A program made the position numbers and the translations under genes. From Desulfobacterales bacterium (GTDB lineage: Bacteria; Desulfobacterota; Desulfobacteria; Desulfobacterales; ETH-SRB1), in NCBI GenBank assembly GCA_030610995.1, contig JAUWQO010000004.1, forward strand, positions 1-63,654: a DNA stretch of 63,654 bases, given 5' to 3'. Below the pieces are notes generated by a model. That model did no database searches, was not told the origin of the DNA, and saw only the letters and a list, made by a program, of their open reading frames with translations. Of this stretch, positions 36,870 through 58,833 are shown piece by piece. How positions within the stretch are numbered: position 1 is the first letter of the stretch; the number at the start of each line of letters is the position of its first letter.

Positions 36870-36880
36870 ATTACCTGTGC

Positions 36881-42095: not shown

Positions 42096-42110
42096 CGGAG
42101 TTTGAGCTAA

Positions 42111-42638: not shown

Positions 42639-42719
42639 CCGCTTGACTTTTTAACGAGTTCTGTTTAATAGTTCTGCGGTGAAGATATTAAACTGCAAGT
42701 ATTGCAAAAAGGAGGGTAT

Positions 42720-42995
42720 ATGAATAAGCTGGAGATTATTTCCGCCTTAAAAGCCGAGGCTAATATCTCAAAATCGGATGCCACAAGGGTGGTTCAAATA
42801 TTTTTTGATTCTATGGAGAATGCCCTGGTGCAGGGAGAAAGGGTTGAAATTCGCGGGTTGAGCAGCTTTTTTATAAAAGAGTACAAGGCATATACCGGCA
42901 GAAATCCAAAGACAGGTGAAAGGGTTTTGATAAAGCCCAAAAAACTCCCGTTTTTTAAGGCCGGAAAAGAATTGAAAGACAGAGTAGATAATTAA
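42720..42995 (+). CDS. Integration host factor / HU-family DNA-binding protein
   Basis: GGAGG RBS 6 nt upstream of ATG 42720; VEIRGLSSF..GRNPKTGE..I..K..P.FKAGKELK. Confidence 0.8.
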   Translation: MNKLEIISALKAEANISKSDATRVVQIFFDSMENALVQGERVEIRGLSSFFIKEYKAYTGRNPKTGERVLIKPKKLPFFKAGKELKDRVDN

Positions 42996-43044
42996 TACAT
43001 CTCGGAATTTCTACCACGCCTTGGCGTGGGAATTCCTGCGACTT

Positions 43045-43132
43045 TAGTCGAGTAGTTAAATGGTCGAGTCGTCGAGTTGTAAGGGTCATTGAACTACTGG
43101 ACAAATCAACCACTCGACCACTCGACCAATTG
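43045..43132. repeat. Short palindromic repeat, family actcgaccactcgac
   Basis: gtcgagtagtt..ggtcgagtcgtcgagttg versus caaccactcgaccactcgacc arms; accounts for false N-terminal extension of holB ORF. Confidence 0.55.
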
Positions 43133-43157
43133 TGAGCGAAGCGAACCAAGTTCTTTT

Positions 43158-44204: not shown

Positions 44205-44217
44205 GGCAAATATTTGG

Positions 44218-44399
44218 TAATAGTTCAGCCACAAAGTCACAAAGACACTAAAATTCATAATTTAGGAATTTAGGGATTCCGAATTGAAGGATGTTGTCAT
44301 TTTTAATTCCTCAATTCCTCAATTCCTCAATTCGCAATTCCTCAATTTATCAATCATGTCTTTCCTTTGTGACTTTGTGTCTTGGTGGCTGAACCGTTA
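44218..44399. repeat. Palindromic element, family cagccac(c)aa(g)(a/t)cacaaagacac, enclosing an 8-bp tandem repeat (aattcctc x4-5 at 44305..44345)
   Basis: tagttcagccacaaagtcacaaagacac / gtctttcctttgtgactttgtgtcttggtggctgaac ends are reverse complements. Confidence 0.7.
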
Positions 44400-44418
44400 T
44401 AATATTTAAAGAATAATT

Positions 44419-45228
44419 ATGGCAAAGATTGTAGGAGTAAGATTTAAGTCTTTTGGCAAGGTTTACGATTTTGACAGCGGCGCATTTGTGCTTAGCTGCG
44501 GAGATAGTGTGATTGTAGAAACAGAGCGGGGTCTTTCTTTTGGAATGGTTGCGGCGCCTCCCGCGCCACGTGATGAACAGTTGTCGGGCCGGCCGCTTAA
44601 AAAGGTGTTTCGTCTCGCTAATGAAAAAGATTTCAAGCAGCGAGAGAAAAACCTTGAAAAAGAAAAAGCGGCCCAAGCATTCTGCATTAAATGCATCAAT
44701 GAGCTAAAACTGAAAATGAACCTGTTTGTTGTTGAAAGCTCCTTTGATAGTAGCAAGCTGACCTTTTTTTTCACGGCCGAGGGTCGTGTCGACTTTCGTC
44801 AACTTGTTAAAAAGCTGATCAACCAGTTCGGGGTCAGGATTGAGATGAGACAGGTTGGAATACGGAATCAGGCCAAGATGAGCGGCGGTGTCGGAAGATG
44901 CGGACGACAAATCTGTTGCTCTCTATTCATGAATACGTTTGAACCGGTTTCTATACGTATGGCAAAGGACCAGAATCTGTCGTTAAATCCAACAAAGATT
45001 TCCGGTTTGTGCGGCAGGCTGATGTGTTGCCTTACATATGAATATGAAACATACAAAAAGCTTAAGAAAAAGTTTCCAAAGATCGGAAAAATAGTGAATA
45101 CTGCGATGGGACGGGGCAAGGTGATACGACATAACGTAATACAAAATCGCCTGACAATACATATGGATGAGGGTCAGGATGTAGAATTGCTGTTAGATGA
45201 TATTATAAAGGAACAGGAGAGAAAATGA
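44419..45228 (+). CDS. PSP1-domain protein (RicT/YaaT-like)
   Basis: VGVRFK..GKVYDFD start, PSP1 C-terminal domain with Cys cluster (CGRQICCS..LCGRLMCCL). Confidence 0.8.
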   Translation: MAKIVGVRFKSFGKVYDFDSGAFVLSCGDSVIVETERGLSFGMVAAPPAPRDEQLSGRPLKKVFRLANEKDFKQREKNLEKEKAAQAFCIKCINELKLKMNLFVVESSFDSSKLTFFFTAEGRVDFRQLVKKLINQFGVRIEMRQVGIRNQAKMSGGVGRCGRQICCSLFMNTFEPVSIRMAKDQNLSLNPTKISGLCGRLMCCLTYEYETYKKLKKKFPKIGKIVNTAMGRGKVIRHNVIQNRLTIHMDEGQDVELLLDDIIKEQERK

Positions 45229-47159
45229 CCAGGCCGTTTTATATAACAACTCCTATCTATTATGTAAACGCAATGCCCCATCTTGGGCATGCATATACTA
45301 CTATTGTAGCCGATGTTGTTTGCCGGTTTAATTTTATGCAACAGAACGAAACCTTGTTTTTGACCGGCACAGATGAACATGGGGACAAAATAGTACGCGC
45401 CGCTAAAAAAGAGAATATAAGCCCCAGGGCCTATGTGGACAAAATAAGCGAAGTTTTCAGAGACCTATGGCCCCAGCTTAACATTAAATATGATTATTTT
45501 ATCCGTACTTCCGATCCAGCCCATATTGCTGTTGTGAAGCAGATACTGCAGAAAGTTTATGATGCGGGCGATATCTATTTTAGCGAGTATGAAGGGCTCT
45601 ATTGTTTTGGGTGCGAACGCTTCTTTACCGAGCGCGAGCTGGTTGATGGAAAGTGTCCCGACCATCTCATTGAACCGGAACCTATCAAGGAGTCCAACTA
45701 TTTTTTCAAGATGAGCCGGTATCAGGACTGGCTTATCGATCATATTGAGAAGCATCCCGATTTTATTCGACCTGAACGATACAGAAATGAAGTTCTGGCA
45801 TTTTTAAGCGAACCCCTTGAAGATCTTTGCATATCACGCCCAAAGACGCGACTTAAATGGGGAATCACCCTGCCGTTTGATAAAAACTATGTTACATATG
45901 TGTGGTTTGATGCTCTTTTAAACTATATCTCAGCTCTTGGATATCCTGATGGAGAGCTGTTTAAAAAATTTTGGCCGTATGCCCAGCATCTGGTTGCTAA
46001 GGATATTCTCAAGCCTCACGGTATATACTGGCCTATCATGCTTAAAGCTGCCGGTATTCCAATGTATAATCATCTTAACGTTCATGGATACTGGAATGTT
46101 GACCAGGGCAAGATGTCCAAAAGTATTGGGAATGTTGTAGAGCCGCTCCAGTTGAAAAATATTTACGGGCTTGATGCATTCAGATTTTTTTTGATGCGGG
46201 ATATGGTATTCGGGCTTGATTCCAACTTTAGCGAACAGGCGCTGGTTCAGCGAATCAATGCGGATCTGGCAAACGATCTCGGCAACCTGTTTTCCAGAGT
46301 TGTTGCAATGGTCCACAAATATTTCAAAGGCATAGTCCCTGAGGTTGATCCGGGAGTTGAAGATGAGTTTCAGCTTGGTCTTAAATCGGATATGCTGGCT
46401 GCAATCCCCGAATATGAGCAGGCTATGGAGAATTTTGCTTTTCACAAAGCCCTTGTGACAACCTGGGAGTTAATCGCCAAGATGAACAGATATGTCGATG
46501 TTACGTCGCCGTGGGTGCTTGCAAAGAAAAAATCCAGCCAAAAACAGTTGCAGGTTGTAATCTCAAATCTTCTTAACGGGCTCGGAGTGATAGCAGGTCT
46601 TATTTATCCGATCATGCCGGACACATCCGCAGCCATGCAAAAGCATCTTGGCATAAATCCGGATCTGATTACAAAAGGGAGCTTTAACAACCTCGATATG
46701 CTTAAAACATGGAAAATAATCAAGCCGGGCACACAGCTTCCAAAAGGGATCACCCTTTTTCCCAGAATTGACATGAAAAACAATAAGGCTATGTCGCAGA
46801 AGGAGTCGGCTGCCGGAGATCTCTTATCTGTCTTAAAAACCGAGATACCTGTAGAAGCATTCGGCGCAATTGATCTCAGGGTGGCTACAGTGCTTAGCGC
46901 AGAATCGATTCCAAGGGCAAAAAAGCTGCTTAAGCTTGAGGTCGATCTGGGAGAAAAGCGGACCCTTGTAGCAGGTGTTGCCGCAAGCTATAAACCTGAA
47001 GATCTGGTCGGGAAACAGGTAATAGTGGTTGCTAATTTAAAGCCGGCTAAAATAATGGGAATAGTTTCAAACGGAATGGCGCTGGCTGCTGTTGATGATA
47101 ATGGCTGTTCTTTAGTAACCGTAGATAGAAAGGTTAAGCCGGGAACGCCTGTGAGCTGA
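45225..47159 (+). CDS. metG: Methionine--tRNA ligase with C-terminal tRNA-binding (EMAP-like) domain
   Basis: TPIYYVNAMPHLGHAYT (HIGH), KMSKS, Zn knuckle CFGCERF..CPDH. Confidence 0.93.
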   Translation: MTRPFYITTPIYYVNAMPHLGHAYTTIVADVVCRFNFMQQNETLFLTGTDEHGDKIVRAAKKENISPRAYVDKISEVFRDLWPQLNIKYDYFIRTSDPAHIAVVKQILQKVYDAGDIYFSEYEGLYCFGCERFFTERELVDGKCPDHLIEPEPIKESNYFFKMSRYQDWLIDHIEKHPDFIRPERYRNEVLAFLSEPLEDLCISRPKTRLKWGITLPFDKNYVTYVWFDALLNYISALGYPDGELFKKFWPYAQHLVAKDILKPHGIYWPIMLKAAGIPMYNHLNVHGYWNVDQGKMSKSIGNVVEPLQLKNIYGLDAFRFFLMRDMVFGLDSNFSEQALVQRINADLANDLGNLFSRVVAMVHKYFKGIVPEVDPGVEDEFQLGLKSDMLAAIPEYEQAMENFAFHKALVTTWELIAKMNRYVDVTSPWVLAKKKSSQKQLQVVISNLLNGLGVIAGLIYPIMPDTSAAMQKHLGINPDLITKGSFNNLDMLKTWKIIKPGTQLPKGITLFPRIDMKNNKAMSQKESAAGDLLSVLKTEIPVEAFGAIDLRVATVLSAESIPRAKKLLKLEVDLGEKRTLVAGVAASYKPEDLVGKQVIVVANLKPAKIMGIVSNGMALAAVDDNGCSLVTVDRKVKPGTPVS

Positions 47160-47421
47160 AAGCGACCATAATCCTTAGATGGCATCCACCGCACAGCCCT
47201 TCTCCTTATATCCGAAATTCTTGGAAATACCACCACCACCATGCCCATAAGCGCTTAAATAAGCATTTTTTTAACCCCAGAAGTAGTTGTAGCAAAATTC
47301 ATAATTCACAATTAGCGATTGATTATTGACAATTTGTAGTGATAAGTTAAGTAGTTATCGACATCGACCCATTTTGTATAATAATCAATAATCAATTGTA
47401 AATTACTAATTGTTAAAAACT

Positions 47422-47468
47422 TTTCCACAAGGCTTTTAACCCCTAACGGCTGTCTGTGGGACCTGGTA
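47422..47468 (+). repeat. 47-nt fragment homologous to the 3' part of the XRE-ImmA gene (matches 49901..49948)
   Basis: tttccacaaggcttttaacccctaacggctgtctgtgggacctggta versus tttccagaaggcttttaacccccaacggccgcctgtgggatctggta: 5 mismatches in 47 by my count. Confidence 0.75.
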
Positions 47469-47499
47469 CGGGAAAAAAATCAAACAGCCATCAAAGTAT

Positions 47500-47528
47500 T
47501 TGCTTTTGAAGCGAATAACGATTATAAT
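47500..47528 (+). promoter_or_regulatory. Sigma70-like promoter for the Fic gene with overlapping 12-bp palindrome
   Basis: TTGCTT-N17-TATAAT, 33 nt upstream of ATG 47562; the -10 box lies inside perfect palindrome cgattataatcg (47519..47530). Confidence 0.4.
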
Positions 47529-47561
47529 CGCTTTAAATTATGAAGCGAAAGGAAGGCTGAA

Positions 47562-48683
47562 ATGCGTTATGTATGGCAAAATACAAACTGGACAGAATTT
47601 AGCTGGGAAAGTGATGCACTGATTCAACCGCTTGGTCGGGCTCGACTGCGCCAGGGCAGGTTGCTGAGCAAGGTGAATGCTCTGGGTTTGAAATTCAGCA
47701 AAGAAGCCAGGGTTGAAATATTGATTGAAGAAGCCGTTAAAACCGCTGCGATCGAAGGGCAGGCCCTGCACAGGGATTCGGTCAGGTCTTCAGTGGCACG
47801 GCGACTTGGGCTGCCGACAGCCGGTTTGCCCGCCACGGAACGGGTTGTCGATGGCCTGGTGGATGTTCTGTTGGATGCCACTGCAAATTACAGCGAGCCG
47901 CTGTCGCCCGAAAGACTGATTGGCTGGCAGGCTGCCCTCTTTCCGACAGGGTATTCAGGCTTGCGGAAAACTCGTACCGGTCAATGGCGAGGCCCGGAAC
48001 TTATGCAGGTGGTATCAGGCCCTGTTGGCAAAGAAAAAGTCCACTTTGAGGCGCCGCCATCAGACCAGGTGGATATGGAAATCAGAGATTTCATTCAATG
48101 GTGGACAAAGGGATCGAAAAAAATCGAGGGACTGCTGCGGGCCGCTATAGCCCATTTTCGGTTTGTCACTATTCATCCGTTTGAAGATGGTAATGGACGG
48201 ATCGCCAGAGCCCTTACTGATATGGCGTTGGCACAGGATGAGAACCTGCCGTCCAGGTTTTACAGCCTTTCGACACGTATCATGGCTGAAAGGGATAGAT
48301 ACTACCGTGTGCTGGAGCAATGTCAGAAAGGAGACGGTAATATAACTGATTGGCTGCTATGGTTTCTGGAATGTTTCGAACGGGCGCTTGAGCATTCAGA
48401 GACATTGATTTCAAATGTTCTGGCAAAGGCACGGTTTTGGCAGCAGCATGGGCAGACGACATTGAATAAACGCCAGCAAAAGGTTATCAATCGGTTGCTG
48501 GATGCCGGTCCAGGCGGTTTCGAAGGCGGTCTGACCACCCGTAAATATGTGGGCATGGTAAAGGTTAGCCGGGCAACCGCTTATCGCGAGATATCGGACC
48601 TGGTTGCAAAGCAGATATTTAGGCAGAACCCGGGCAGGGGTCGCAGTGTCAGCTATGACATAATATGGGCAGATACGGAGTAA
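47562..48683 (+). CDS. Fic family protein (DUF4172-type N-terminus, class II inhibitory helix, C-terminal wHTH-like tail)
   Basis: Fic motif HPFEDGNGRIARAL; N-terminal TAAIEG matches the (S/T)xxxE(G/N) intramolecular inhibitory motif. Confidence 0.85.
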   Translation: MRYVWQNTNWTEFSWESDALIQPLGRARLRQGRLLSKVNALGLKFSKEARVEILIEEAVKTAAIEGQALHRDSVRSSVARRLGLPTAGLPATERVVDGLVDVLLDATANYSEPLSPERLIGWQAALFPTGYSGLRKTRTGQWRGPELMQVVSGPVGKEKVHFEAPPSDQVDMEIRDFIQWWTKGSKKIEGLLRAAIAHFRFVTIHPFEDGNGRIARALTDMALAQDENLPSRFYSLSTRIMAERDRYYRVLEQCQKGDGNITDWLLWFLECFERALEHSETLISNVLAKARFWQQHGQTTLNKRQQKVINRLLDAGPGGFEGGLTTRKYVGMVKVSRATAYREISDLVAKQIFRQNPGRGRSVSYDIIWADTE

Positions 48684-48842
48684 AATGTTATCACTAAAAC
48701 CAATCTCCGGTGCCTGTCTAAACTCAACATCTGCCCAATCATAAACTGGAAACACAGCGGCTTGAACTTCTAATTCATTGACCCATTTTCTTCTTCTGCA
48801 CACTCTCTGACACGCTCCCAGAACCATTTCGTGCTATATATC

Positions 48843-48867
48843 TGTCAATATAAAAATTATATTGACA
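48843..48867 (+). promoter_or_regulatory. Candidate operator: 10-bp perfect inverted repeat upstream of the XRE-ImmA gene
   Basis: tgtcaatata-aaaat-tatattgaca; right arm contains TTGACA (-35-like) followed 17 nt later by TAACAT. Confidence 0.4.
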
Positions 48868-48897
48868 AAAACAAGACCAAAAAGTAACATTAAAAAT

Positions 48898-50034
48898 ATG
48901 AAAATCAATCTTGGTTTCATCGGAAAAAATATCCGTAAACTTAGACGGCAACGTAGTTGGACGATGGCTAAACTCGCTGCAAAAGTCGGAATGAGCGAAG
49001 TGCCTTTAGGAAGAATTGAGCGCGGTGTAAACGCTCCTTCCGCTTCTGTAATTTACAGACTGTCAAAAGAGTTGGGCGTTTCTGTGGATATGCTTTTTGC
49101 CGAGGATAATCAAAACCTCAGATCTCTTCAGTATGAAAAAGCACGAAATCCTTTTCTTGTTGCAATCGACAAAGAGCATGAAGCTCTGCCCGCTAAAACC
49201 AGGATTATGGCCCAGGATATTATTGATGCGTTTTGTGCCCTTGAAGATATTTGCAAAGCGCAGAAAAGGGCAAATATTCCGCTTGTTATTCCTTTCGATC
49301 TCACAATTAGGGGAATGGAAGCACTTTCGGAAAAGGTGCGCTATTTTGCCGGAATTGAGCACGGCGTGGTCTTTGACTATTTTGAACTCTTTGAAACCCT
49401 TGGTTTTCGTGTAATCGTAGCTCCTATGCCTAAAGGAATTGAGAGTTTTTCATATTATGACCCTTTAAATCAGAATGCTTTCTTTTTTTTGACGGCAAGG
49501 CAGAATCCTGAACGTCAGCTTTTTTGCCTGGCCTATGAATTGGGAAAGGTCTTAATCCTGACTCACTCTATACAGCAGGGCGTGGAATTGTTTCAAACCG
49601 ATGCCGCATCTGATTCTTCAGGCGAAAAACCGTTTACAGCTCATCGTGCTGCCAGGCGTTTTGCCGCTACCTTTCTGATGCCTGCAAAAGCTGTGAGCGA
49701 TACTGTTAGACAATTAGGAATTCAAAAAAAGTACTGGTCTTACGAACTCTTGCTTAGAATCAAACATCGCTTTGGTGTTTCAGCAGAAGCTTTTTTATAT
49801 CGTTTAAATGAACTCGATTTAATCGATCCCTCTCTGGTTCAATCGCTTAAAGCTAAAATTCATAAATATTACGGCAAAACAAATTTTGGCGAACCAGATC
49901 TTTCCAGAAGGCTTTTAACCCCCAACGGCCGCCTGTGGGATCTGGTATTAACCGGGAAAGAATCAAAAGAAGGACGTGAGGAAGTGTTTAAAATTGAGAA
50001 AGTATTGAAAAAGTGGAAGGTAGTAAGAAAATGA
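48898..50034 (+). CDS. XRE-family HTH fused to ImmA/IrrE-type metallopeptidase domain
   Basis: N-terminal HTH (IRKLRRQRSWTMAKLAAKVGMSEVPLGRIERG), C-terminal region with ImmA/DUF955-like layout (LAYELGKVL..., FAATFLMP); ATG at 48898 preferred over TTG 48862. Confidence 0.7.
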   Translation: MKINLGFIGKNIRKLRRQRSWTMAKLAAKVGMSEVPLGRIERGVNAPSASVIYRLSKELGVSVDMLFAEDNQNLRSLQYEKARNPFLVAIDKEHEALPAKTRIMAQDIIDAFCALEDICKAQKRANIPLVIPFDLTIRGMEALSEKVRYFAGIEHGVVFDYFELFETLGFRVIVAPMPKGIESFSYYDPLNQNAFFFLTARQNPERQLFCLAYELGKVLILTHSIQQGVELFQTDAASDSSGEKPFTAHRAARRFAATFLMPAKAVSDTVRQLGIQKKYWSYELLLRIKHRFGVSAEAFLYRLNELDLIDPSLVQSLKAKIHKYYGKTNFGEPDLSRRLLTPNGRLWDLVLTGKESKEGREEVFKIEKVLKKWKVVRK

Positions 50035-50084
50035 ATCGGTACATAGCGCTGGATGTGGGAACAACCGACCTCTGTGTACATTAA
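50031..50084 (+). pseudogene. Truncated 5' end of a DEDDh exonuclease gene (17 codons then stop)
   Basis: MNRYIALDVGTTDLCVH*; first ~35 nt match the start of the intact exonuclease at 51487; ATGA overlap with the ImmA stop. Confidence 0.6.
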
Positions 50085-50214
50085 AAAATAAGCGGAAAAC
50101 TATATCCAAATACCAGGGCAAGCTGAAGAAAGAAAAGAACCTGGGAACGCAGGTTCAACTGAACACTCGAATCAAACAGATCAAGTGTCGCATCGAGGAA
50201 ATTAAGGCAGCATT

Positions 50215-51342
50215 ATGAATGGCGAAAGAGATAAAAAGCACGAAACAGAACAGCGAAAGGTTCGTAATGTGAAACAAAAAGACGGGATTGTTATGCCTGT
50301 TCCGGTTTCACAAACTGATCTTCCTGATGGCTACGCAAATTTGCTGGCCTCCCTCAAGAAACGTATTCAACAGGAGCGCATAAAAACGGTTCTATCTGCC
50401 AATTGCGCAATGGTGATGCTCTATTGGGATATTGGGGCATCCATACTCGAAAGACAGCAAACCGAGGGCTGGGGGGCAAAAGTCATAGACAGGCTTTCAT
50501 TTGATCTAAAAGAAGCATTCCCGGATATGAAGGGGTTTTCCTCGCGAAATCTGAAATATATGCGCAAATTTGCTGAATCATGGAGAGATCGTCAATTAGT
50601 GCAACGCACCGTTGCACTAATTCCATGGCGCAGCAACCTGGCTCTATTGGACAAATTAAAAGACCTCAAACAACGGCTTTGGTATGCTCAAAAGACAATA
50701 GAAAACGGCTGGAGTCGTGATGTTTTATCCTTTCAGATTGAAACGCAGCTTCACAAACGATTAGGTAAGGCTACTAACAACTTTGAAATAGCGCTTCCTC
50801 CTGCCGATTCTGATATGGCATCTCAAATCTTCAAAGACCCTTATATCTTTGATTTTCTGGGAACGGCTGAACCTCGTAGAGAAACAGAATTAGAGCAGAA
50901 GCTTATTGAGCATCTGGAAAAATTTCTATTGGAACTGGGACAGGGTTTTGCTTTTGTAGGCAGACAGGTTCATATGGAAGTTGGGGATGATGATTTTTAT
51001 ATTGACCTGCTTTTTTATCACCTCAAATTGCGCTGCTATGTGGTGGTTGAGTTAAAGGCTGGAAAATTTCAGGCCGGTCATGTCAGCCAATTGAATATGT
51101 ATATGAATATAGTTGATGATCTGATGCGTCATCCGGATGACAAGCCGACAATCGGACTATTGCTGGTAAAAGAAAAAAACAAAACTCTGGCTAAATATGC
51201 CCTTGCCGGATACACCAAGCCGATGGGTGTTGCCGAGTGGGAAAGACATATAACAGAGTCTATTCCTGAAAATCTTAAATCAAGTCTACCTACCATTGAA
51301 GAGATTGAAGCTGAATTTTCAGCGGAGGAAAATGACGGATGA
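50215..51342 (+). CDS. YhcG/DUF1016-family PD-(D/E)XK nuclease-like protein
   Basis: N-terminal helical region (YWDIG..I...Q..GWGAKVI..LS.DL) and C-terminal nuclease core (FAFVGRQ..DFYIDLLFYH..YVVVELK). Confidence 0.8.
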   Translation: MNGERDKKHETEQRKVRNVKQKDGIVMPVPVSQTDLPDGYANLLASLKKRIQQERIKTVLSANCAMVMLYWDIGASILERQQTEGWGAKVIDRLSFDLKEAFPDMKGFSSRNLKYMRKFAESWRDRQLVQRTVALIPWRSNLALLDKLKDLKQRLWYAQKTIENGWSRDVLSFQIETQLHKRLGKATNNFEIALPPADSDMASQIFKDPYIFDFLGTAEPRRETELEQKLIEHLEKFLLELGQGFAFVGRQVHMEVGDDDFYIDLLFYHLKLRCYVVVELKAGKFQAGHVSQLNMYMNIVDDLMRHPDDKPTIGLLLVKEKNKTLAKYALAGYTKPMGVAEWERHITESIPENLKSSLPTIEEIEAEFSAEENDG

Positions 51343-51406
51343 GCAATAATAGCAGACAATTTCTGGTTAGAGCTGGAGACGACAATGGATAAATTGACAG
51401 AACAGG

Positions 51407-51486
51407 ACGGGAAAAGAATCGGAAAAAGGACGTGAGGAAGTGCTTGAAATTGAGAGAGTATTGAAAAAGTGGAAAGTGGTAAAAAA
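51407..51486 (+). repeat. Orphan 3' fragment of an XRE-ImmA gene directly abutting the intact exonuclease
   Basis: 51428..51521 versus 49972..50065: 8 mismatches in 94 ungapped nt by my count; preserves the ATGA stop/start junction. Confidence 0.8.
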
Positions 51487-51996
51487 ATGAATCGGTATAT
51501 AGCGCTGGATGTGGAAACAACGGGTCTTTCGCCCCAAAACGGGGACAGGGTAATAGAAATCGGCGCAGTTGCTATCGAGAATCAGGGCATTATTGCTGAA
51601 TTCAGCAGCCTTATCGATGTTGACAAAAGGATCCCCTGGCAAGTTCAGCAGGTGCACAGCATAACCAATGAAATGCTAAGCGGCGAACCCAAACCGGATG
51701 AGATATGGTCGGAGTTTTACGAATTCATTGCCGGAAGTATCCTGGTAGCCCACAATGCAAGCTTTGACATCGGATTTTTAAGACATGAATTTGATTTATT
51801 AGGCATGACTCTGAATAATCGGTCTTTGTGTACACTAAAAATGAGCAGAAAGCTATATCCGCATTTGCCCGATCATAAACTGGAAACAGTAAGCCGATAC
51901 CTGCTTGGAGAATCAGCGAATCAGATGCAAAGACATCGGGCGCTTGATGACGCGAAGCTTGCGGCCATGATATGGCTTGAAATGGGGAAAATGTGA
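51487..51996 (+). CDS. DEDDh 3'-5' exonuclease (DnaQ/epsilon-like, stand-alone)
   Basis: ExoI ALDVETTG, ExoII AHNASFDIGFL, ExoIII HRALDDA; 169 aa from ATG 51487. Confidence 0.85.
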   Translation: MNRYIALDVETTGLSPQNGDRVIEIGAVAIENQGIIAEFSSLIDVDKRIPWQVQQVHSITNEMLSGEPKPDEIWSEFYEFIAGSILVAHNASFDIGFLRHEFDLLGMTLNNRSLCTLKMSRKLYPHLPDHKLETVSRYLLGESANQMQRHRALDDAKLAAMIWLEMGKM

Positions 51997-52057
51997 GCAG
52001 GCTGAACAAATGAAAGAGCTGTTAAAATAACAGATTAAACAAGAGGATATCGTAACT

Positions 52058-53074
52058 ATGTCAAAAGAACTTACAAACTCAACCATAGAACGCCAGAATG
52101 TTCTGAACAACCCCTATGCAGTTACCGAAATTCAGAAAGCTGTAGACCTCCGATGCATCTTTTTTGAAGACCGCAATTGGTTAAATAAGGAGCAGATCGC
52201 TTCTTTTTTTGAAGTCACGCCGCGTACCATCGATAATTATCTCAACAAATATGAAAGCGAATTGCGTCATAACGGTTACGAAGTGCTGCAAGGTATCCGA
52301 TTGAAAAAGTTGAAGAAAGCTATAATTGAGCAGTTTGGTGACGAAATGGATTTCATTACCAAAACAACGACTCTCGGCATATTTGATTTTAGGGCGTTTC
52401 TTAATATCGCAATGTTGCTGACCGAAAGCGAACGGGCCCGCGTGTTGCGGCAAACCATTCTGGATATCGTTATCGACACGATAAATCAGCGTACCGGAGG
52501 CAGTACCAAATATATCAATCAGCGTGACGAAGACTTTATTCTTGCCTACTTTCAGGAGGAGAATTACCGCAAGGAATTTACCAATGCGTTGCGGGATTAT
52601 GTGGACATGGGTAATTTCAAATACCCGATGTACACCAATAAAATTTATGTCAGCATCTTTCGTGAAAATGCACAAGAATATCGCAAGATACTGAAGCTGC
52701 ACGAAAAAGATAAAGTTCGCGATACCTTTTATTCCGAGATTCTCGATCTGGTGGCTTCCTACGAATACGGATTTGCCAAACTGCTGGAAGCCACCCATGC
52801 AAAATGGCAGCAAAAGCTGACTTCATGGGATGTAGATCTGCTCTTTAAGGAATTTGAGAAACAGCCGCACTGGAAACCCCTGGTTGAAAGGGCCAGAAAC
52901 AAGATGGCAAGCCGTGACCTGGTGTTCAGAGATGCACTTCATTTGCAGCTAAAAGAATATATTATGCCTGTTCAAGCTGATGAATTTGAACGTTTTCTTG
53001 GGGAGAAAAGCAAGGAGTTGGCAGAACGCCTGGAAGAAGCCAAAGATGTTTTTAAACGGTTAAAGGAACGCTAA
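52058..53074 (+). CDS. RhuM-like DNA-binding protein (probable partner of the adjacent Doc)
   Basis: IFFEDRNWLNKEQIASFFEVTPRTIDNYLNKY parallels the RhuM N-terminal motif (..VWLTQ.QMAELF...R.VI..HI.NIF); 3-nt gap to Doc gene. Confidence 0.5.
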   Translation: MSKELTNSTIERQNVLNNPYAVTEIQKAVDLRCIFFEDRNWLNKEQIASFFEVTPRTIDNYLNKYESELRHNGYEVLQGIRLKKLKKAIIEQFGDEMDFITKTTTLGIFDFRAFLNIAMLLTESERARVLRQTILDIVIDTINQRTGGSTKYINQRDEDFILAYFQEENYRKEFTNALRDYVDMGNFKYPMYTNKIYVSIFRENAQEYRKILKLHEKDKVRDTFYSEILDLVASYEYGFAKLLEATHAKWQQKLTSWDVDLLFKEFEKQPHWKPLVERARNKMASRDLVFRDALHLQLKEYIMPVQADEFERFLGEKSKELAERLEEAKDVFKRLKER

Positions 53075-53076
53075 TA

Positions 53077-53511
53077 ATGGGATTTGTTTACCCTACACTT
53101 GAACAGGCCGTGAATGTACATCAGAAAACCGTTGAGATCAGCGGTGGCGGAACGATGGGAAAATTGGATATGGGAAGGCTCGAAAGTGTTCTTTGCCATA
53201 TCCAAAACGATGACTACTATCCGGTTTTCGAAGACAAACTGACCCATCTCTTTTTCGGAGCCTGTAAATTCCATTGTTTTGAAGACGGAAACAAACGGAT
53301 CGCCATTTCATTGGGTGCCCAGTTCTTATTGCTGAACGGTTATGTTTTCGTTACCAAGCGGTTTATCCATGAGATGGAAAATATCAGCTATCATGTCGCA
53401 ACGGGAGAAATTGATAAAGACCTGCTTAAAGAGATTATCTCCGCTGTCATTGAAGATGATATGGAACGTGAAGGTTTGAAACTGAAGATATTAATGGCGA
53501 TTTCAGATTAA
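53077..53511 (+). CDS. doc: Doc (death-on-curing) family toxin, Fic/Doc superfamily
   Basis: HCFEDGNKRIAISL motif (HxFxDGNKR), ~140 aa. Confidence 0.85.
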   Translation: MGFVYPTLEQAVNVHQKTVEISGGGTMGKLDMGRLESVLCHIQNDDYYPVFEDKLTHLFFGACKFHCFEDGNKRIAISLGAQFLLLNGYVFVTKRFIHEMENISYHVATGEIDKDLLKEIISAVIEDDMEREGLKLKILMAISD

Positions 53512-53545
53512 CATTATGAACCACGGATGGACAAAGGTTCCAGCC

Positions 53546-53831
53546 GGAATTTTACAAATTCATTACCGGAAGTATTCTGGTAGCCCACAATGCAAGCTTT
53601 GATATCGGATTTCTAAGACACGAATTTGCTTTATTAGGAATAGGCCTGAACAACCGGTCTTTATGCACACTAAAAATGAGCAGAAAGCTATATCCGCATT
53701 TGCCCGATCATAAACTGGAAACAGTTAGTCAATACCTGCTTGGAGAATCAGTAAATCACATGCAAAGACACCGAGCGCTCGATGATGCGAAGCTTGCTGG
53801 TATGATATGGCTTGAAATGGGGAAGATATGA
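53546..53831 (+). pseudogene. 3' fragment (last ~95 codons, frame intact) of a second, diverged DEDDh exonuclease gene
   Basis: Ungapped match to 51711..51996 including an identical run of more than 50 nt; lacks ExoI, keeps ExoII/III; ends in its own stop at 53829..53831. Confidence 0.7.
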
Positions 53832-54581
53832 GTGGTTCAGTCCATAAGACTGTGTCAGCCGCGAATGGATTGGAGGGTGTCAATGACGGCGAAGCCGATC
53901 AAAAGGAAGAGTGACAAGCTTGTGAGCATACAGGGGTATGATGGCCTTCTTTCCGGCATGGTCTCTCTCATTGAGGAGGCGCGACGGGTATCAGCACGAA
54001 CCGTCAACGCCATCATGACGGCAACCTACTGGGAGATAGGTCGCCGCATTGTAGAAAACGAGCAGGGCGGGAAACGGCGGGCTGGGTATGGAGAGGCTCT
54101 GCTCAAGCAACTTTCGGCAGATCTTGCGAGCCGGTTTGGTCGAGGCTTCGCAAAAAGCAATCTCTACCAGATGCGGACCTTCTATCTGACGTATCAGGAT
54201 ATTTTCCAGACGGCGTTTGGAAAATCAAAGTCCCGAAAATTCCAGACACCGTCTGGAAAATCTCAGCCTCACAATTCGCAGACTCCGTCCGCGGAATTGA
54301 CTGTTCAGGCCATCTCAGAACGGTTTCCGCTCCCTTGGTCTGCCTATAATCCCGACGGACCTTGGACATATCAACATCAAACGTCTATTCACGGTAAACG
54401 TGATGGGTTTACAATAGCAGATTTGCTTGCCGTTGGTAAAGAGATGAATATCAAGTCCGGCCTCCCGATTATCAAAGCGGTAATAGAATCAGTTTCACAA
54501 TGGCCGCGTTTTGCCAGTGAGGCCGGGGTCGAGAACAGGCAGATTGAAGCCATCGGGAAGGTGCATCGGTTGAGTCTATAA
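53832..54581 (+). pseudogene. Chimeric ORF: DUF1016/YhcG N-terminal region fused to a HipA-like C-terminal tail
   Basis: aa ~40-170 resemble the DUF1016 N-domain (TATYWEIGRRIVENEQ..GYGEALLKQLSADL, FPLPWSAY); from AYNPDG onward it reads like the end of HipA kinases (..SIHGKRDGFTIADLL..WPRFASEAGV); nuclease core and kinase core both missing. Confidence 0.5.
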
Positions 54582-54583
54582 TT

Positions 54584-54748
54584 TTGATGGCGTCGTAAAA
54601 AGTCCCATCTACTGTGTTGTAGTATTTTTTCAGACCCTCGACATACTATATATATGCCTTCGGTCCTGAAAAACTACTACGCCTTGTATATGAACCTTTT
54701 TACTTAGCCATCTGCAGTTAAATTCGTGACTTTTTACGAGTTCATCAA
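54584..54748. repeat. TIR-bounded miniature element, family tcgtaaaaagtc, inside the island
   Basis: ttgatggcgtcgtaaaaagtc / gtgactttttacgagttcatcaa ends. Confidence 0.7.
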
Positions 54749-54818
54749 TTTTATATGCTGTAACAACTGCTAACTGCGAGTTAGGGCAAAAGCTGAAGAT
54801 TTCGCAACCTGCAGTAAG

Positions 54819-54910
54819 TTTAGCGGTTAAACGCTTAAGAGCAATTCGTTATACGCCACAATTACTCATTAAAACCTTAACAGTAATTTATAAACCAATG
54901 TACGAAAGTC
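54819..54910. repeat. Dispersed ~97-bp repeat (copy 2; see 33..129), here extended upstream into an HTH-like reading frame
   Basis: Frame reads ..ELGQKLKISQPAVSLAVKRLRAIRYTPQLLIKTLTVIYKPMYESRK* with no start codon. Confidence 0.7.
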
Positions 54911-55016
54911 GGAAATAGAAAATGAACACGAAAAAACTTTTATTTCTTTCCCCTTTTGTGCTAACCACAAAAAGATTAACCGTAATACATAAATAAAATA
55001 AAAAATATAGCTCACT

Positions 55017-56909
55017 ATGGAATTAAAATCAAAAGTTTCGATTTTTCCATCGCCCCGCCCGATTCTGAAATGGGCAGGGGGAAAACAGCAATTATTACCC
55101 ATCCTTTTATCCAAAACCCCAAAAAATTTTAACAGGTACATAGAACCATTCTTTGGTGGCGGAGCATTATTTTTTGCATTACAGCCTGACAAGGCCATCA
55201 TTTCAGAATCCAATCCGGAACTTATAAACTTCTATCGTATAATCTCGAAAAATGTTGATAGTCTCATACAAAAACTTTATGAATTCAGGTTAGATAAAGA
55301 AGAATATTATAATATCCGGGTATTGGATTTTCAAAAACTTCCTCCGGTTGAAGCCGCCGCAAGAACCATCTATCTAAATCGGCTCTGTTTTAACGGTCTT
55401 TACCGTGTAAATCGAAAAGGTATGTTTAATGTGCCTTACGGATATTATAAAAATCCCCGCACATGTAACCCGGAAGGCTTAAAAATCGCATCTGAAGCCT
55501 TAAAAAACGCGACCATCATCCAGGGGGATTATAAAGATGTTCTACGCGACTATGCTAAACCGGGAGATTATATATATCTCGACCCTCCTTACCTGCCTAT
55601 TTCGGAATACTCTGATTTTAAACGTTATACCAAAGAGCAATTCTATGAAGAAGATCACGTTGAACTTGCAGAGGAAGTAAAACGACTGCATGAACTTGGA
55701 TGTTACGTTTTATTGACAAATTCCAACCATCCAATGGTTTATGAGATGTACAACGGTTTTGAAATCGAAGTTATTCAAACTCGCAGGAATATCAATAAAA
55801 AAGGCAATAAGCGTAAAGGGGAGGATGTTGTAATCTATATTCCTCCACGCCGGTATTTTCTCATAAGCCCTGTTCCACCGGAATTACCAAAGCAGGCAAA
55901 AGCATATCCGTCCACACGTTTTATGGGGAGCAAGCAATCTCTTTTAAAGCATATATGGAACGTAGCATCACAATTTGAATTTGAAACCGTACTTGATATA
56001 TTTAGTGGAAGCGGTGTCGTTGGTTATATGTTCAAATCGTTCAACAAACAGGTTATAAGCAACGATTACATGGCTATGTGTGCCACATTTGCCGAAGCCA
56101 TGATAGCCAATAACACCGAAACACTTGACAAAAGCGAAGTTGAATTTCTGTTATCTCCATCTGCAAAAACAGATGATTTTGTAAGTCAAACTTTTCAAGG
56201 ACTCTATTTTATTGATGAAGAAAACGCATTTATTGACCAAATCCGGGGAAATATAAAAAGGCTTAAAAATAAAACCAAAAGGTCAATAGCCACATCCGCA
56301 CTTATACGTGCCTGCCTGAAAAAACGCCCCAGGGGAATCTTTACCTATACCGGACATAGGTATGATGACGGACGGAAAGATCTCCGGTTATCTCTGAAAG
56401 AACACTTTTTAAAAGCCGTTAAATGTACAAATCAGGCTGTTTTCGATAACAGCAAAGGAAATAAAGCCAGGTGCGGAGATGCCATGACCATCCGGTTAAA
56501 ACCGGATTTGGTCTATATTGACCCTCCTTATTATAGCCCATATTCCGACAATGAATATGTCAGGCGGTATCATTTTGTTGAAGGATTGGCGTGTAACTGG
56601 AAAGGTGTGGAAATGCAATGGCATACGAAAACCCGAAAATTTAAAAGCTATCCCACCCCCTTCAATTCAAGGATAGGAGCACATGACGCATTTAACAAAC
56701 TGTTTCGGAAATTTAAGGATAGTGTTCTAATCGTTTCCTATTCATCAAATTCCTTTCCAAATCAGGAAGAACTAACAAACCTCATGGCAAAATATAAAAG
56801 CCAGGTCGAGGTTGTTTCGATAGACTATCGATACAGCGCAGGAAACCAGGGACACAAAATCAACGACAATAATAACAAGGTGCGGGAATACCTGTTTGTA
56901 GGTTTTTGA
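55017..56909 (+). CDS. Tandem double Dam-like (D12 class) N6-adenine DNA methyltransferase
   Basis: Two complete modules: (1) LKWAGGKQQLL, EPFFGGGALFF, YLDPPY; (2) FMGSKQSLL, LDIFSGSGVVG, YIDPPY; fusion of two such modules is typical of methylases serving asymmetric (Type IIS) sites. Confidence 0.8.
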   Translation: MELKSKVSIFPSPRPILKWAGGKQQLLPILLSKTPKNFNRYIEPFFGGGALFFALQPDKAIISESNPELINFYRIISKNVDSLIQKLYEFRLDKEEYYNIRVLDFQKLPPVEAAARTIYLNRLCFNGLYRVNRKGMFNVPYGYYKNPRTCNPEGLKIASEALKNATIIQGDYKDVLRDYAKPGDYIYLDPPYLPISEYSDFKRYTKEQFYEEDHVELAEEVKRLHELGCYVLLTNSNHPMVYEMYNGFEIEVIQTRRNINKKGNKRKGEDVVIYIPPRRYFLISPVPPELPKQAKAYPSTRFMGSKQSLLKHIWNVASQFEFETVLDIFSGSGVVGYMFKSFNKQVISNDYMAMCATFAEAMIANNTETLDKSEVEFLLSPSAKTDDFVSQTFQGLYFIDEENAFIDQIRGNIKRLKNKTKRSIATSALIRACLKKRPRGIFTYTGHRYDDGRKDLRLSLKEHFLKAVKCTNQAVFDNSKGNKARCGDAMTIRLKPDLVYIDPPYYSPYSDNEYVRRYHFVEGLACNWKGVEMQWHTKTRKFKSYPTPFNSRIGAHDAFNKLFRKFKDSVLIVSYSSNSFPNQEELTNLMAKYKSQVEVVSIDYRYSAGNQGHKINDNNNKVREYLFVGF

Positions 56910-56911
56910 TT

Positions 56912-58675
56912 ATGGCAAATCCATGGCACATAGGAAACACAACAGTCAGAACCCCTTACCGTTTAAGAGATGCTTTAATTGCTTTAGCGCATTCAGAATA
57001 TCATGGCAATCTGGTAGGAAAAGTCAGAGAAAGTGGATTCGCAAGATTACTTCATGAAAAAGAAATCTTAAAAGCTGAACGAATTGACCAGGACGATTCA
57101 CAGGACTTTAGCGATTTAGGAAGAAAGTGGAGAAGTGCCCTTGCCCAATTAGGTTTTGTGATTCAACATCTTACCAGAGAACACCAAAAAGGAATAGACC
57201 CGAAATATAAAGATTTTATCAAAGAACACCCCGATTTTTCGGGGATACCATATGAAGTGACTCCAAACGGAATCAATCTTATCAATGCCGATACAATACC
57301 CGCACAGCAAGAATGTTTTTTAAGAGCATTGGCGGCATACAGAATACCATCTGTATTTGAACCTCGATACAAAGTTAAACAATTTTCACCCTTACACCAT
57401 GTACTTAAAATCCTAAAAAATCTCGAAAACAAAAAAGTCGAGCCTGTAATAAAATTTTGGGAAATGGCGGTTTTGCAATTAACAACTCCCGAAAACGGTT
57501 ACGAAAACATCACAAACAACATCCTCAAATACAGAGAAGAAAGAAAAAAGAGTGCCAACAAAAAAAGATTCGATCAGGAAATGAGGCTAAAAGCAACAAG
57601 CGGCAACATAACAAGGGCAAGAACTCTTAAAGATTACGCCGACTTAAATATTCGATATCTTAAAGCCACAGGTCTGTTTCAATCTTCCGGCAGAGGAATA
57701 ACATTTTTACCGGAAAAACGCATCCTGGTTGAAAAACTCCTTGAAGATGAATTTACAATCTATGATGACAATACATACATAAAAGAAATATGGACAGGAG
57801 CTACATTGCCAACTGATAACAGAGAAACAGCGCAAACTGTTATCAAATCATTAGTCGGTAATATCAAAGAATTCGGTGAAAAAATCGCCCTCCCGAGACT
57901 TGAAGATAAAACCTCTCAAGAACTCTCAAACATTCGTCATAATATAGAAGGGCAATTGAGCCGGATAAAAGAAAACGAATTTGCAAATAAGCAAATTATA
58001 AATTGGGAAGAAATCTTATGCTATATGCTTGCTCTTGAAAAACCGGGCAAGAAAATTTCTTTCCAGGATGAAGTGATAAGCATACCACGCGGAGAAGCGC
58101 CGGCTTACTTTGAGTGGATTCTTTGGAGAGCTTTTTTAGCCATTAACTCACTGACAAACAAACCCTGGGAAGCCAGACGATTTAAAATAGACCAGGATTT
58201 TTTGCCAATAGCACCAGCGCCAGGCAGAGGTCCCGATCTCATTTTTGAATTCAAAGATTATGTTCTGGTTGTAGAAGTAACATTAACCTCATCCTCCCGA
58301 CAGGAAGCCGTTGAAGGTGAGCCGGTACGTCGCCACGTTGCCGAAATAGCCGAGCAACACGAAAATACAGGTAAACGAGTATATGGACTATTTATAGCTT
58401 TAAACATAGACAGCAACACCGCTGAAACATTTAAAAGTGGTAACTGGTACAAGCCGGATGATAGTAAACTCCCGCTTCAGATTATTCCAGTCAGGCTTGA
58501 TGATTTTTCCAAACTGTTTGAAGCCGGCTTTAAAGCTGGGGGACTAACTCCCAATAAGATCAGAGAACTGATTACAGAATGCCGTGCTTTGAGTAATTAT
58601 GACGCTCCGGAATGGAAAAGCCAGATAAACAAACAAGTAAAAGAGTTCATAGGGCAAATCATCAAAGACAAATGA
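56912..58675 (+). CDS. AlwI-family-like Type IIS restriction endonuclease
   Basis: N-terminal W.IGNTTVRTPYRL pattern recalls the RE_AlwI family; C-terminal PD..(E)V.. nuclease-like segment GPDLIFEFKDYVLVVEVTL; overlaps/abuts methylase stop (alt. TTG start 56906). Confidence 0.6.
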   Translation: MANPWHIGNTTVRTPYRLRDALIALAHSEYHGNLVGKVRESGFARLLHEKEILKAERIDQDDSQDFSDLGRKWRSALAQLGFVIQHLTREHQKGIDPKYKDFIKEHPDFSGIPYEVTPNGINLINADTIPAQQECFLRALAAYRIPSVFEPRYKVKQFSPLHHVLKILKNLENKKVEPVIKFWEMAVLQLTTPENGYENITNNILKYREERKKSANKKRFDQEMRLKATSGNITRARTLKDYADLNIRYLKATGLFQSSGRGITFLPEKRILVEKLLEDEFTIYDDNTYIKEIWTGATLPTDNRETAQTVIKSLVGNIKEFGEKIALPRLEDKTSQELSNIRHNIEGQLSRIKENEFANKQIINWEEILCYMLALEKPGKKISFQDEVISIPRGEAPAYFEWILWRAFLAINSLTNKPWEARRFKIDQDFLPIAPAPGRGPDLIFEFKDYVLVVEVTLTSSSRQEAVEGEPVRRHVAEIAEQHENTGKRVYGLFIALNIDSNTAETFKSGNWYKPDDSKLPLQIIPVRLDDFSKLFEAGFKAGGLTPNKIRELITECRALSNYDAPEWKSQINKQVKEFIGQIIKDK

Positions 58676-58682
58676 TTTAATA

Positions 58683-58826: not shown

Positions 58827-58833
58827 TAATCTT

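Follow-up and report, generated by a model that had tools for sequence, protein, structure and literature searches.

In Vibrio cholerae, orphan immunity genes located downstream of the effector-immunity modules of type VI secretion systems (T6SS) have been explained by sequential displacement, under a model that combines homologous recombination in a conserved anchor with illegitimate joining at the other end, the older pieces being kept downstream (Kirchberger et al. 2017, PMC5361080); displacement of Rhs C-termini and orphan modules of contact-dependent inhibition (CDI) loci are among the cases cited in that paper. Another group of described systems consists of the damage-responsive repressor-peptidase pairs CapH/CapP, IrrE/DdrO and ImmR/ImmA, and a CapH-CapP fusion beside DISARM is already known (Lau et al. 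2022, 10.1101/2022.04.27.489752; Calloji et al. 2026, PMC13228613); CapH/CapP have been described as divergently oriented relative to the immune operon (Lau et al., 10.1101/2022.04.27.489752). Here we analyze an array of gene fragments and defense genes in a 63,654-nt stretch of DNA from a Desulfobacterales bacterium (contig JAUWQO010000004.1; hereafter, the window). Pieces of two genes, one coding for a protein with an N-terminal XRE helix-turn-helix (HTH) and an M78-like domain (XRE-ImmA; hereafter, the regulator) and the other for a DEDDh exonuclease, recur in this array among Fic, YhcG, RhuM-like and Doc genes. The array was probably produced by serial recombination between divergent versions of one locus followed by deletion, and its fragments would be the scars of defense-cassette swapping behind a conserved regulator.

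Gene fragments, repeats and cassettes downstream of metG

Three pairs of direct repeats were recovered by two independent methods, and the similarities are not due to low complexity. Fragment A and the intact regulator gene (copy B) share 42 of 47 nucleotides (47422-47468 versus 49901-49947), and with one 4-nt gap the similarity extends over 47419/47422-47484 versus 49898-49967 (82% identity; BLAST E 6e-12). Copy B and fragment C share 102 of 115 nucleotides without gaps (49951-50065 versus 51407-51521; E 7e-37), and the intact exonuclease (copy C) shares 256 of 288 nucleotides, also ungapped, with the truncated copy D (51710-51997 versus 53545-53832; E 3e-105). The longest perfect runs are 15 nt in the A-B pair and 18 nt in the B-C pair; the C-D pair contains a perfect run of 59 nt (51832-51890, identical to 53667-53725) inside exonuclease copies that are otherwise 89% identical. 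The original prediction, made from the sequence alone, had listed four fragments of one regulator-exonuclease module and three repeat pairs. All of these are present, with small corrections to the coordinates: the B-C repeat is real but longer than proposed, starting at 49951 and not at 49972, and two exonuclease remnants had been overlooked, namely, eR, upstream of copy B, and the distal part of eL, downstream of it (50059-50107, 80% identical to exonuclease positions 51813-51860). Altogether, the window holds the regulator gene in three pieces (A, the intact B, and C) and the exonuclease gene in four (eR, eL, the intact C, and D; Table 1).

Table 1. Features of the array and of the adjacent parts of the window
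Feature	Position	Strand	Remarks
metG, core gene, left island border	45225-47159	+	tblastn, Pfam context
Fragment A	47419-47484	+	decayed XRE-ImmA remnant, ~nt 1001-1070 of 1137; 82% to copy B
Fic cassette	47487-48687	+	gene 47562-48683; DUF4172 + Fic (Pfam); PADLOC SoFic
Exonuclease remnant eR	48727-48754	+	exonuclease nt ~375-402; match to exonuclease 51861-51888
XRE-ImmA promoter region	48760-48897	+	-35 TTGACA 48862-48867; -10 TAACAT 48885-48890; palindrome 48843-48867
Intact XRE-HTH + M78-like regulator gene, copy B	48898-50034	+	Pfam HTH_3 + Peptidase_M78
Exonuclease remnant eL	50031-50107	+	exonuclease nt 1-35, ~300-nt deletion, exonuclease nt ~327-376
YhcG cassette	50193-51410	+	gene 50215-51342; DUF1016_N + YhcG_C; PADLOC PDC-S02
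Fragment C	51406-51489	+	last 84-86 nt of a second XRE-ImmA allele
Intact DEDDh (DnaQ-like) 3'-5' exonuclease, copy C	51487-51996	+	Pfam RNase_T 1.5e-36; PADLOC DEDDh
RhuM-like + Doc cassette	52033-53507	+	genes 52058-53074, 53077-53511; PADLOC PDC-M59A/B
Fragment D	53517-53831	+	5'-truncated exonuclease; ungapped 53545-53832; 89% to copy C
Remnant open reading frame	53832-54581	+	N-terminal 172 aa of a second YhcG type + ~75 aa; Pfam DUF1016_N only
MITE-like element (miniature inverted-repeat transposable element), 28-nt terminal inverted repeats	54577-54755	.	inverted-repeat search
Restriction-modification genes: D12 methylase, AlwI-type endonuclease, N4/N6 methylase	55017-59691	+	Pfam
ABC-3C-like three-gene set: CTD10; MC6; CTD10+DUF2326	60024-62925	+	GC ~49%

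The comparison loci carry L-numbers, those with the regulator gene being L001-L073. Fragment A aligns with the 3' region of the regulator gene in more than 20 loci (77-90% over 49-71 nt) and with full-length alleles across its whole 66-nt span (82-86%, with the 4-nt gap). Remnant eR is 93% identical to exonucleases C and D and 100% identical to the corresponding sequences of L028 and L012; in the latter, an exonuclease 3' remnant likewise lies upstream of the regulator promoter. The start codon of eL overlaps the regulator stop codon as ATGA, and fragment C provides the ribosome-binding region and an ATGA-overlapped start for the intact exonuclease. Fragment D begins with a degenerate, frameshifted stretch that reaches back to ~53517, 5 nt past the Doc stop codon, and its own stop codon is overlapped by the GTG start of the next open reading frame, amino acids 1-172 of which are 96% identical to a protein of L028. 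The ~75-aa tail of this reading frame matches no Pfam family and no PDB entry; a HipA C-terminal remnant was considered and dropped because neither database supports it. The proposal that fragment A ends where fragment C begins holds approximately, with an overlap of ~17 nt at an A-rich motif (49951-49967). The two fragments are not halves of one split gene because L011 and L012 carry Fic right behind a complete regulator gene, with the same Fic left edge; the breakpoint region common to A and C is better explained by the A-rich motif being slippery.

The segment 47160-54600 appears to be the proximal part of a defense island that starts right after metG and is organized by the regulator gene; judging by the comparison of metG loci, the island begins at 47160 and extends at least to the window end, that is, over at least 16.5 kb. 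The nearest relative with sequence beyond metG (L082, ~91% nucleotide identity) is syntenic with window positions 33670-47160, its homology stops just after the metG stop codon, and it continues with unrelated genes, so that it represents an empty site. At the same site in L086 (93%), metG is truncated at the equivalent of window position 46849 and is followed by a remnant of a MITE end, a regulator remnant of ~25 nt and then an exonuclease gene. The left junction, TAAAAAC/TTT, is common to fragment A and the L086 regulator remnant, and an older regulator copy beside metG seems to have been destroyed already in the common ancestor of the two organisms. Comparison of the locus downstream of metG, the check put forward in the original prediction, therefore yields an empty site in one relative and a different arrangement in another. 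Among 77 more distant metG loci, many of them on contigs that end soon after metG, no island genes were found in the downstream sequence at hand.

The stretch downstream of the regulator gene appears to be a hypervariable array of short, co-oriented, apparently promoterless defense or toxin-type cassettes, each composed of a gene and a leader of ~25-40 nt. The cassettes have different closest relatives, and these are often more similar to the window than the regulator genes of the same genomes (84-97% identity for cassettes, only 68-91% for regulators). The Fic cassette is 96% identical to that of L011 (10335-11536), where the regulator gene is 91% identical, and 94% identical to that of L012; in both loci it lies directly behind a full regulator gene. 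The YhcG cassette has its counterpart at L010 9638-10856 (84% identity), between a full regulator gene (86%) and cas3, and remnants of the same YhcG gene are present in L003 and L011. The RhuM-Doc cassette shares 94-95% identity with those of L028 and L035, two loci in which the regulator gene has only 68-70% identity to copy B, and the block 53543-54347 is 94% identical to L028 15468-16272. In L028 and L035, RhuM-Doc is followed by a full exonuclease gene, which implies a deletion of ~500 nt for fragment D. In L035, a truncated exonuclease gene lies upstream and a full one downstream of RhuM, the reverse of the window, which fits a state with two full exonuclease copies followed by alternative decay.

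The exonuclease itself appears to be one of the movable cassettes. Its gene has two alternative 5' ends, one coupled through ATGA to the regulator stop codon (copies B and C of the window, L013, L009) and the other preceded by a leader of its own and extended N-terminally by 9 codons (L011, L016, L028, L035), so that the regulator and the exonuclease do not form the fixed two-gene module that was originally assumed. In ~10 other loci, cargo lies between direct repeats that derive from the 3' end of an upstream gene. For example, L003 has two exonuclease 3' ends around Fic and two Cas6 3' ends around YhcG, a Cas6 pair is present in L058 too, L043 has three regulator 3' ends, and L012 has several exonuclease fragments. 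The ends of the L012 sequence (1-9083) overlap by 137 nt, and an open reading frame for an M48-like peptidase reads through the end-to-start join; therefore, this 8.9-kb unit is either circular or tandemly repeated. It contains the regulator gene, Fic, RhuM, YhcG, exonuclease pieces and the M48 peptidase gene, and no replication or integration gene.

The repeated pieces differ in ancestry. In a sliding-window comparison, nt 1-300 of copy B are 98% identical to L011, nt 360-600 are 96-100% identical to L013, L010 and L014, and nt 720-960 are 93-96% identical to L021; copy B is a mosaic of at least three alleles and points to homologous crossovers within the anchor gene. For fragment C, identity is 93-94% with the L033 and L003 alleles and only 86.7% with copy B. 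For exonucleases C and D, the synonymous divergence (dS) is 0.47 and the ratio of nonsynonymous to synonymous divergence (dN/dS) is 0.11, in the same range as for intact exonuclease genes of different genomes; hence, most of the divergence between the two copies arose under purifying selection, in intact genes. The suggestion that copy D stems from a once-functional, diverged homologue and not from a drifted local duplicate is borne out by this ratio and by the greater similarity of fragment C to L033 and L003 than to copy B.

The search for microhomology at the junctions, also envisaged in the original prediction, gave tracts of 3-14 nt; a shared core was not found. The deletion of ~300 nt in the exonuclease sequence behind copy B is flanked by a 14-nt direct repeat, AAYAAYSGGTCTTT (exonuclease positions 51510-51523 and 51813-51826). 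At the junction between the YhcG cassette and fragment C, there are 3-4 nt of microhomology (CGG/G). The junction between fragment A and Fic contains an A-rich stretch similar both to nt 1053-1068 and to the end of the regulator gene; compared with L011, 78 nt would have been deleted there. This A-rich motif was used twice. Cargo starts 0-30 nt after the regulator stop codon, at points that differ between loci; behind the stop codons of the regulator and exonuclease genes, breakpoints shift by 0-30 nt from one context to another, and residual similarity past the exonuclease stop codon fades within ~10 nt. More generally, homology between contexts ends from a few nucleotides before to ~10 nt after the stop codons of Fic, the exonuclease and Doc, and the left edge of RhuM, GATTAAAC, is common to several different left contexts. 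No motif is shared among the left and right cassette edges, compared in 3-10 contexts each. No recombinase, integrase or transposase gene was detected in the visible part of the island (47160-63654) or among ~30 assignable cargo clusters of relatives. The earlier statement that mobility genes are not visible holds for the visible island, although MITE-like elements are present.

The regulator gene and its association with cas operons

Searches with the regulator sequence yielded 534 homologues at E <= 1e-10, many of them 64-94% identical and mostly labeled Desulfobacterales or Deltaproteobacteria; gene contexts were taken from metagenome contigs and 64 species-representative genomes. In 30 of the 38 loci with at least 3 kb of downstream sequence, mostly from Desulfobacterales, the regulator gene lies directly upstream of a cas operon, on the same strand. 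The operons are of type I-C (cas3-cas5d-csd1-cas7-cas4-cas1-cas2), of type I-F (confirmed with Pfam in L049, while in L050, L052 and L064 tblastn matched each of the four L049 proteins) or of a third type, Cas6-DevT-DevR. In distant family members (38-51% identity), a spacer of no more than 23-115 nt often separates the regulator gene from the first cas gene; in members of the close clade (67-90% identity), this spacer measures 1-7 kb and is occupied by co-oriented genes: Fic, YhcG, RhuM+Doc, the DEDDh exonuclease, ORF6N and Abi2, in differing orders and with many gene fragments, as well as KilA-N, Bro-N, DUF5131, AAA_14/ATPase_2, PIN, an MmeI-type restriction-modification enzyme and Cas6. These contexts suggest that the true anchor of the array is the regulator gene, with a CRISPR-Cas operon as its usual partner in relatives. 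In L027 (positions 11238-11456 and beyond), the regulator homologue has nothing behind it but a Cas4 fragment and, after that, housekeeping genes (fumarase, pyruvate:ferredoxin oxidoreductase), which looks like a locus after loss of the cas operon. In L004 (13185-16319), gene calling gives one product of 1044 aa that comprises the Abi_2, HD and Cas3 helicase domains; the contigs nearly identical to it (L003 16829-20392) have Abi_2 and Cas3 as separate genes.

The M78 domain of the regulator is recognized by Pfam (PF06114, E 4e-13, above the curated cut-off), and the AlphaFold model (mean pLDDT 81) matches, in Foldseek searches, IrrE/PprI (3dti, 8sln), CapP (7t5t) and the N-terminal domain of CapH (7t5u) with E 1e-4 to 1e-3. 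In PADLOC, it matches the capP and capH models and the RmrA models (E down to 1.4e-25). The designation ImmA is accordingly appropriate as far as the M78 fold and homology are concerned, but not with respect to the HExxH motif, which is absent: the sequence at this position is YELGK in the window, compared to HEFVH in PDB 9vzy, and all of the ~60 family members examined have x-E-L-G-x, with no histidine at either position and a variable third-ligand position. With the motif lost across the family, the regulator is probably a pseudo-peptidase, and because the third metal ligand is not conserved either, self-cleavage seems unlikely. We found no account in the searched literature of an XRE + M78 regulator heading a cas operon, and the family may be an undescribed family of CRISPR-Cas regulators. 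Close relatives of the regulator were not found on sequenced plasmids, phages or viral contigs; the search on such elements, suggested earlier for the whole module, returned only distant matches (<30% identity) or none.

The island genes are all on one strand, with ATGA or 3-nt gene junctions; no convincing intrinsic terminators were found between the cassettes on the coding strand, and the best promoter-like site of the region is located in front of the regulator gene, its core being conserved in 13 loci. Taken together, the single strand, the tight junctions, the lack of convincing terminators and the strong promoter-like site suggest that the cargo may be co-transcribed from the regulator promoter. 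The palindrome upstream of the regulator gene (TGTCAATATA-N5-TATATTGACA, 48843-48867) is unique in the window and only partly conserved in relatives. We do not claim it as an operator because no second copy was found before cargo genes or cas3 in the window or in L011, and because its left half is not conserved in L012, L013 and L017. The second-best promoter-like site of the region, together with an AT-rich inverted-repeat pair, lies at 47296-47416, between metG and fragment A, upstream of Fic.

Explanations for the array

Under the explanation that we favor, no fewer than three alleles of the regulator gene (A, B, C) and four of the exonuclease gene (eR, eL, C, D) would have come together. 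DNA from divergent versions of the same locus would enter through a homologous crossover in regulator or exonuclease sequence on one side, the other side would be joined illegitimately at microhomology, and redundant copies would be pared by deletions between short direct repeats; the survivors would be one regulator gene and one exonuclease gene, both intact, plus four more intact genes of the cargo, namely, Fic, YhcG, RhuM-like and Doc. What we observe is mosaic ancestry, microhomology at junctions, an empty site and a pattern that recurs in relatives; the order of events, the exact route of recombination, co-transcription from the regulator promoter and the function of the regulator are inferred. 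Both ideas of the original prediction are retained in modified form. Tandem integration of related elements trimmed by deletion is largely right, given the regulator gene followed by Fic in L011 and L012, the regulator gene followed by YhcG in L010, and RhuM-Doc followed by a full exonuclease in L028 and L035; the module has to be redefined, though, as a CRISPR-linked regulator anchor with movable cassettes. Swapping of cassettes through flanking homology is partly right, as copy B is a mosaic.

Several explanations compete with serial recombination. Given that the window comes from a metagenome-assembled genome, its sequence being part of contig JAPVVO010000001.1 of GCA_028571735.1, and that the repeats are 82-89% identical, one has to ask whether the assembler stitched strain variants of one locus into a chimera. 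This is exceedingly improbable and is rejected by two further assemblies that reproduce the array structure: ENA assembly ERZ4220937 (NODE_535; SPAdes, ~26x coverage) has the same order over window positions 41562-54964 with 99.97% identity and 3 mismatches, and a Logan contig from run SRR12623522 spans the Fic - exonuclease remnant - XRE junction with 100% identity over 47499-48961. Furthermore, the fragment borders adjoin non-homologous DNA, which is not a product of k-mer chimeras. We regard the array structure as real. Local tandem duplication of a single regulator-exonuclease module, followed by drift and insertion of unrelated cargo between the copies, agrees with the direct orientation and module order of the copies, and among known alleles none is closer to exonuclease D than copy C (88.8%). 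We nevertheless reject this scenario as highly improbable on the basis of the dN/dS and nearest-neighbor comparisons: most of the C-D divergence arose while the genes were intact and under purifying selection, both fragment C and copy B are closer to sequences of other genomes than to one another, the neighbors of each unit match a different foreign locus, and the left junction of fragment A is common to L086.

A site-specific cassette system, with a dedicated recombinase encoded elsewhere (integron-like or other) acting on sites at the regulator 3' end and the cassette ends, would turn the fragments into by-products of integration into gene 3' ends. The cassettes are indeed co-oriented, compact and promoterless, their edges are sharp and recur across contexts, the insertion points cluster 0-30 nt after the regulator stop codon, the recurrent succession of a full gene, cargo and a 3' fragment of the same gene resembles attL/attR after 3'-end integration, and the 8.9-kb L012 unit is either circular or a tandem repeat. 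Such a system is nonetheless unlikely, with no integrase or transposase in the visible island or the ~30 assigned cargo clusters, junctions that have no common motif, and breakpoints that vary by context. The cassettes end from 0-3 nt to a few tens of nucleotides from the stop codon, too close to it for attC-like sites to fit, and one-directional 3'-end integration does not predict the truncated exonuclease upstream of cargo in L035. Integron-like sites were specifically considered and discarded: the RhuM edge GATTAAAC loosely recalls the TTRRRY core, and nothing else fits. A comparably low probability attaches to functional retention, whereby the fragments would be kept as suppliers of translation initiation or promoters for the next gene, or as homology patches for deletion and swapping of cargo, like Rhs/CDI orphan modules. 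Fragment C holds the ribosome-binding region and the overlapped start of the intact exonuclease, the 59-nt C-D run is long enough for RecA-type recombination that would delete RhuM-Doc, and the 115-nt B-C repeat (89%) could delete YhcG and restore the regulator-exonuclease coupling. Conversely, fragment A has decayed (82-86%, with a 4-nt gap) and is separated from Fic by 78 nt, eR and eL have no obvious dependent gene downstream, the perfect runs of the A-B and B-C pairs do not exceed 15 and 18 nt, respectively, and D starts with a frameshifted, decayed stretch.

Some observations weigh against serial recombination as the full account. The nearest-neighbor argument for fragment C involves 83 nt, with 5 versus 11 mismatches, and exonuclease D, at 88.5% identity to the L028 exonuclease and 88.8% to copy C, is no closer to L028. 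Some cassette edges fall at nearly the same nucleotide across contexts (the RhuM left edge; the exonuclease right edge, within ~10 nt of the stop codon); random joins do not predict such recurrence, which needs selection for compact units of a gene and its ribosome-binding site, or some site preference. A fragment boundary also recurs at exonuclease nt ~373 (window 51859-51862), inside the 59-nt perfect C-D run, in L003, in L012 and twice in the window; it may reflect a hot spot, gene conversion or some specific site. The recurrent edges, this boundary and the A-rich motif are compatible with a site preference, or with the repeats being put to functional use. The comparison loci all come from metagenome assemblies, and no cas genes or CRISPR array are present within the window, whose contig ends ~190 nt further, before any cas gene could be seen.

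A more far-reaching possibility, to which we attach only tentative credence, is that the XRE-pseudo-M78 gene and the stretch behind it form a dedicated platform for the expression and capture of cassettes, heading type I CRISPR-Cas operons. The peptidase-like domain of the regulator would have become a pure sensor, and promoterless defense cassettes would be captured, co-regulated with the cas genes and exchanged between genomes, with the regulator 3' end and the exonuclease core serving as portable homology patches, possibly with a crossover preference at exonuclease nt ~373, in what would functionally be an integrase-free analogue of an integron, embedded in an adaptive-immunity locus. If serial recombination is the correct explanation, the locus is a readable record of how defense islands are built without dedicated mobility genes, with scars that allow reconstruction of the events, and homologous crossovers in a conserved anchor, illegitimate joins and deletions would suffice for island building. 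Two features of the relatives are apparently undescribed in the searched literature, namely, the widespread family of XRE + M78-fold regulators without the catalytic motif that head type I-C, I-F and related cas operons in sulfate-reducing Desulfobacterales, and the variable defense-cassette slot between the regulator and cas3, which would place innate defense genes and CRISPR-Cas under one control region.

The remainder of the island and comparison with known systems

The MITE-like element downstream of the array has copies or end remnants in L086 (1795-1939, at the truncated metG end, and ~5875-5905) and in L003 (~17810-17935, inside the conserved cas3 leader). The ABC-3C-like gene set has a GC content of ~49%, compared to ~42% in its surroundings. 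The window also contains dispersed intergenic repeat families, 82-96% identical, at 33-118/54819-54904, at 16576-16720, 27617-27762 and 34505-34728, and at 14668-15095/44218-44393; the independent SPAdes assembly breaks at 54910-54964, beside one of these repeats. As in defense islands at core-gene hot spots, SoFic, PDC-S02, PDC-M59, restriction-modification and ABC-3C genes cluster beside a core gene, and relatives are empty or different at this site; the island under study differs in that its variable part lies behind one conserved regulator, in relatives between that regulator and cas3, and in the unusual density of partial duplications.

With integron arrays, the locus shares a fixed head gene and, behind it, a variable series of short cassettes, which all point the same way, apparently have no promoters and differ from one close relative to the next. 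Unlike integrons, it has no IntI-type integrase in 47160-63654 or in the scanned cargo clusters of relatives and no attC-like sites, motif or hairpin-sized spacer, and its junctions are irregular, with microhomology and gene fragments. The exonuclease resembles CRISPR-associated DEDDh/DnaQ enzymes (Cas2-DEDDh, PDB 8fy9/8fyc) as a small DEDDh enzyme encoded, in relatives, between the regulator and cas3; its sequence matches Cas2-DEDDh and stand-alone DEDDh chains (1e-15) and the PADLOC model of CAS-associated DEDDh. However, the proofreading domains of pol III epsilon and PolC are better matches, and the enzyme is not fused to Cas2. Its repeated truncation in regulator loci implies that it is probably dispensable there.

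The regulator shares with the CapH/CapP-type pairs the N-terminal XRE HTH joined to an M78-fold domain and a location beside immune operons, that is, beside cas operons in 30 of 38 loci and beside defense cassettes in the window. In contrast to CapH/CapP, it is co-oriented with the operon that it precedes and not encoded on the opposite strand, and in contrast to CapH/CapP, IrrE/DdrO and ImmR/ImmA, its HExxH motif is replaced by x-E-L-G-x, a loss that, judging from sequence, argues against repressor cleavage stimulated by single-stranded DNA. The likeness to Rosmer (RmrT/RmrA) is limited to the RmrA-like XRE + M78 protein, with no adjacent RmrT gene according to PADLOC analysis of six neighboring proteins.

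By analogy, the array of the window matches a variant of the sequential-displacement arrays known from T6SS, Rhs and CDI loci. As in the T6SS arrays, a variable array lies behind a conserved anchor gene, other strains are the source of new modules, older pieces end up farther downstream, where they persist as truncated 3' fragments, and the alleles of one array do not cluster together; homologous recombination without specific sites is common to both, homology-facilitated illegitimate recombination having been proposed for the additive steps. In the window, displaced 3' fragments of the regulator gene (A, C) and of the exonuclease gene (eR, eL, D) lie among variable cargo behind the anchor, the cassettes are closest to different foreign loci, the dN/dS ratio of the exonuclease copies is low, and copy B is a mosaic. 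The differences from the T6SS, Rhs and CDI arrays are that the anchor is the gene of a transcription regulator instead of a secreted toxin or its carrier, that the cargo consists of anti-phage or toxin-type genes and not of effector-immunity pairs, that a second conserved gene, the exonuclease, also provides repeated homology, and that the array of the relatives is located inside a CRISPR-Cas locus.

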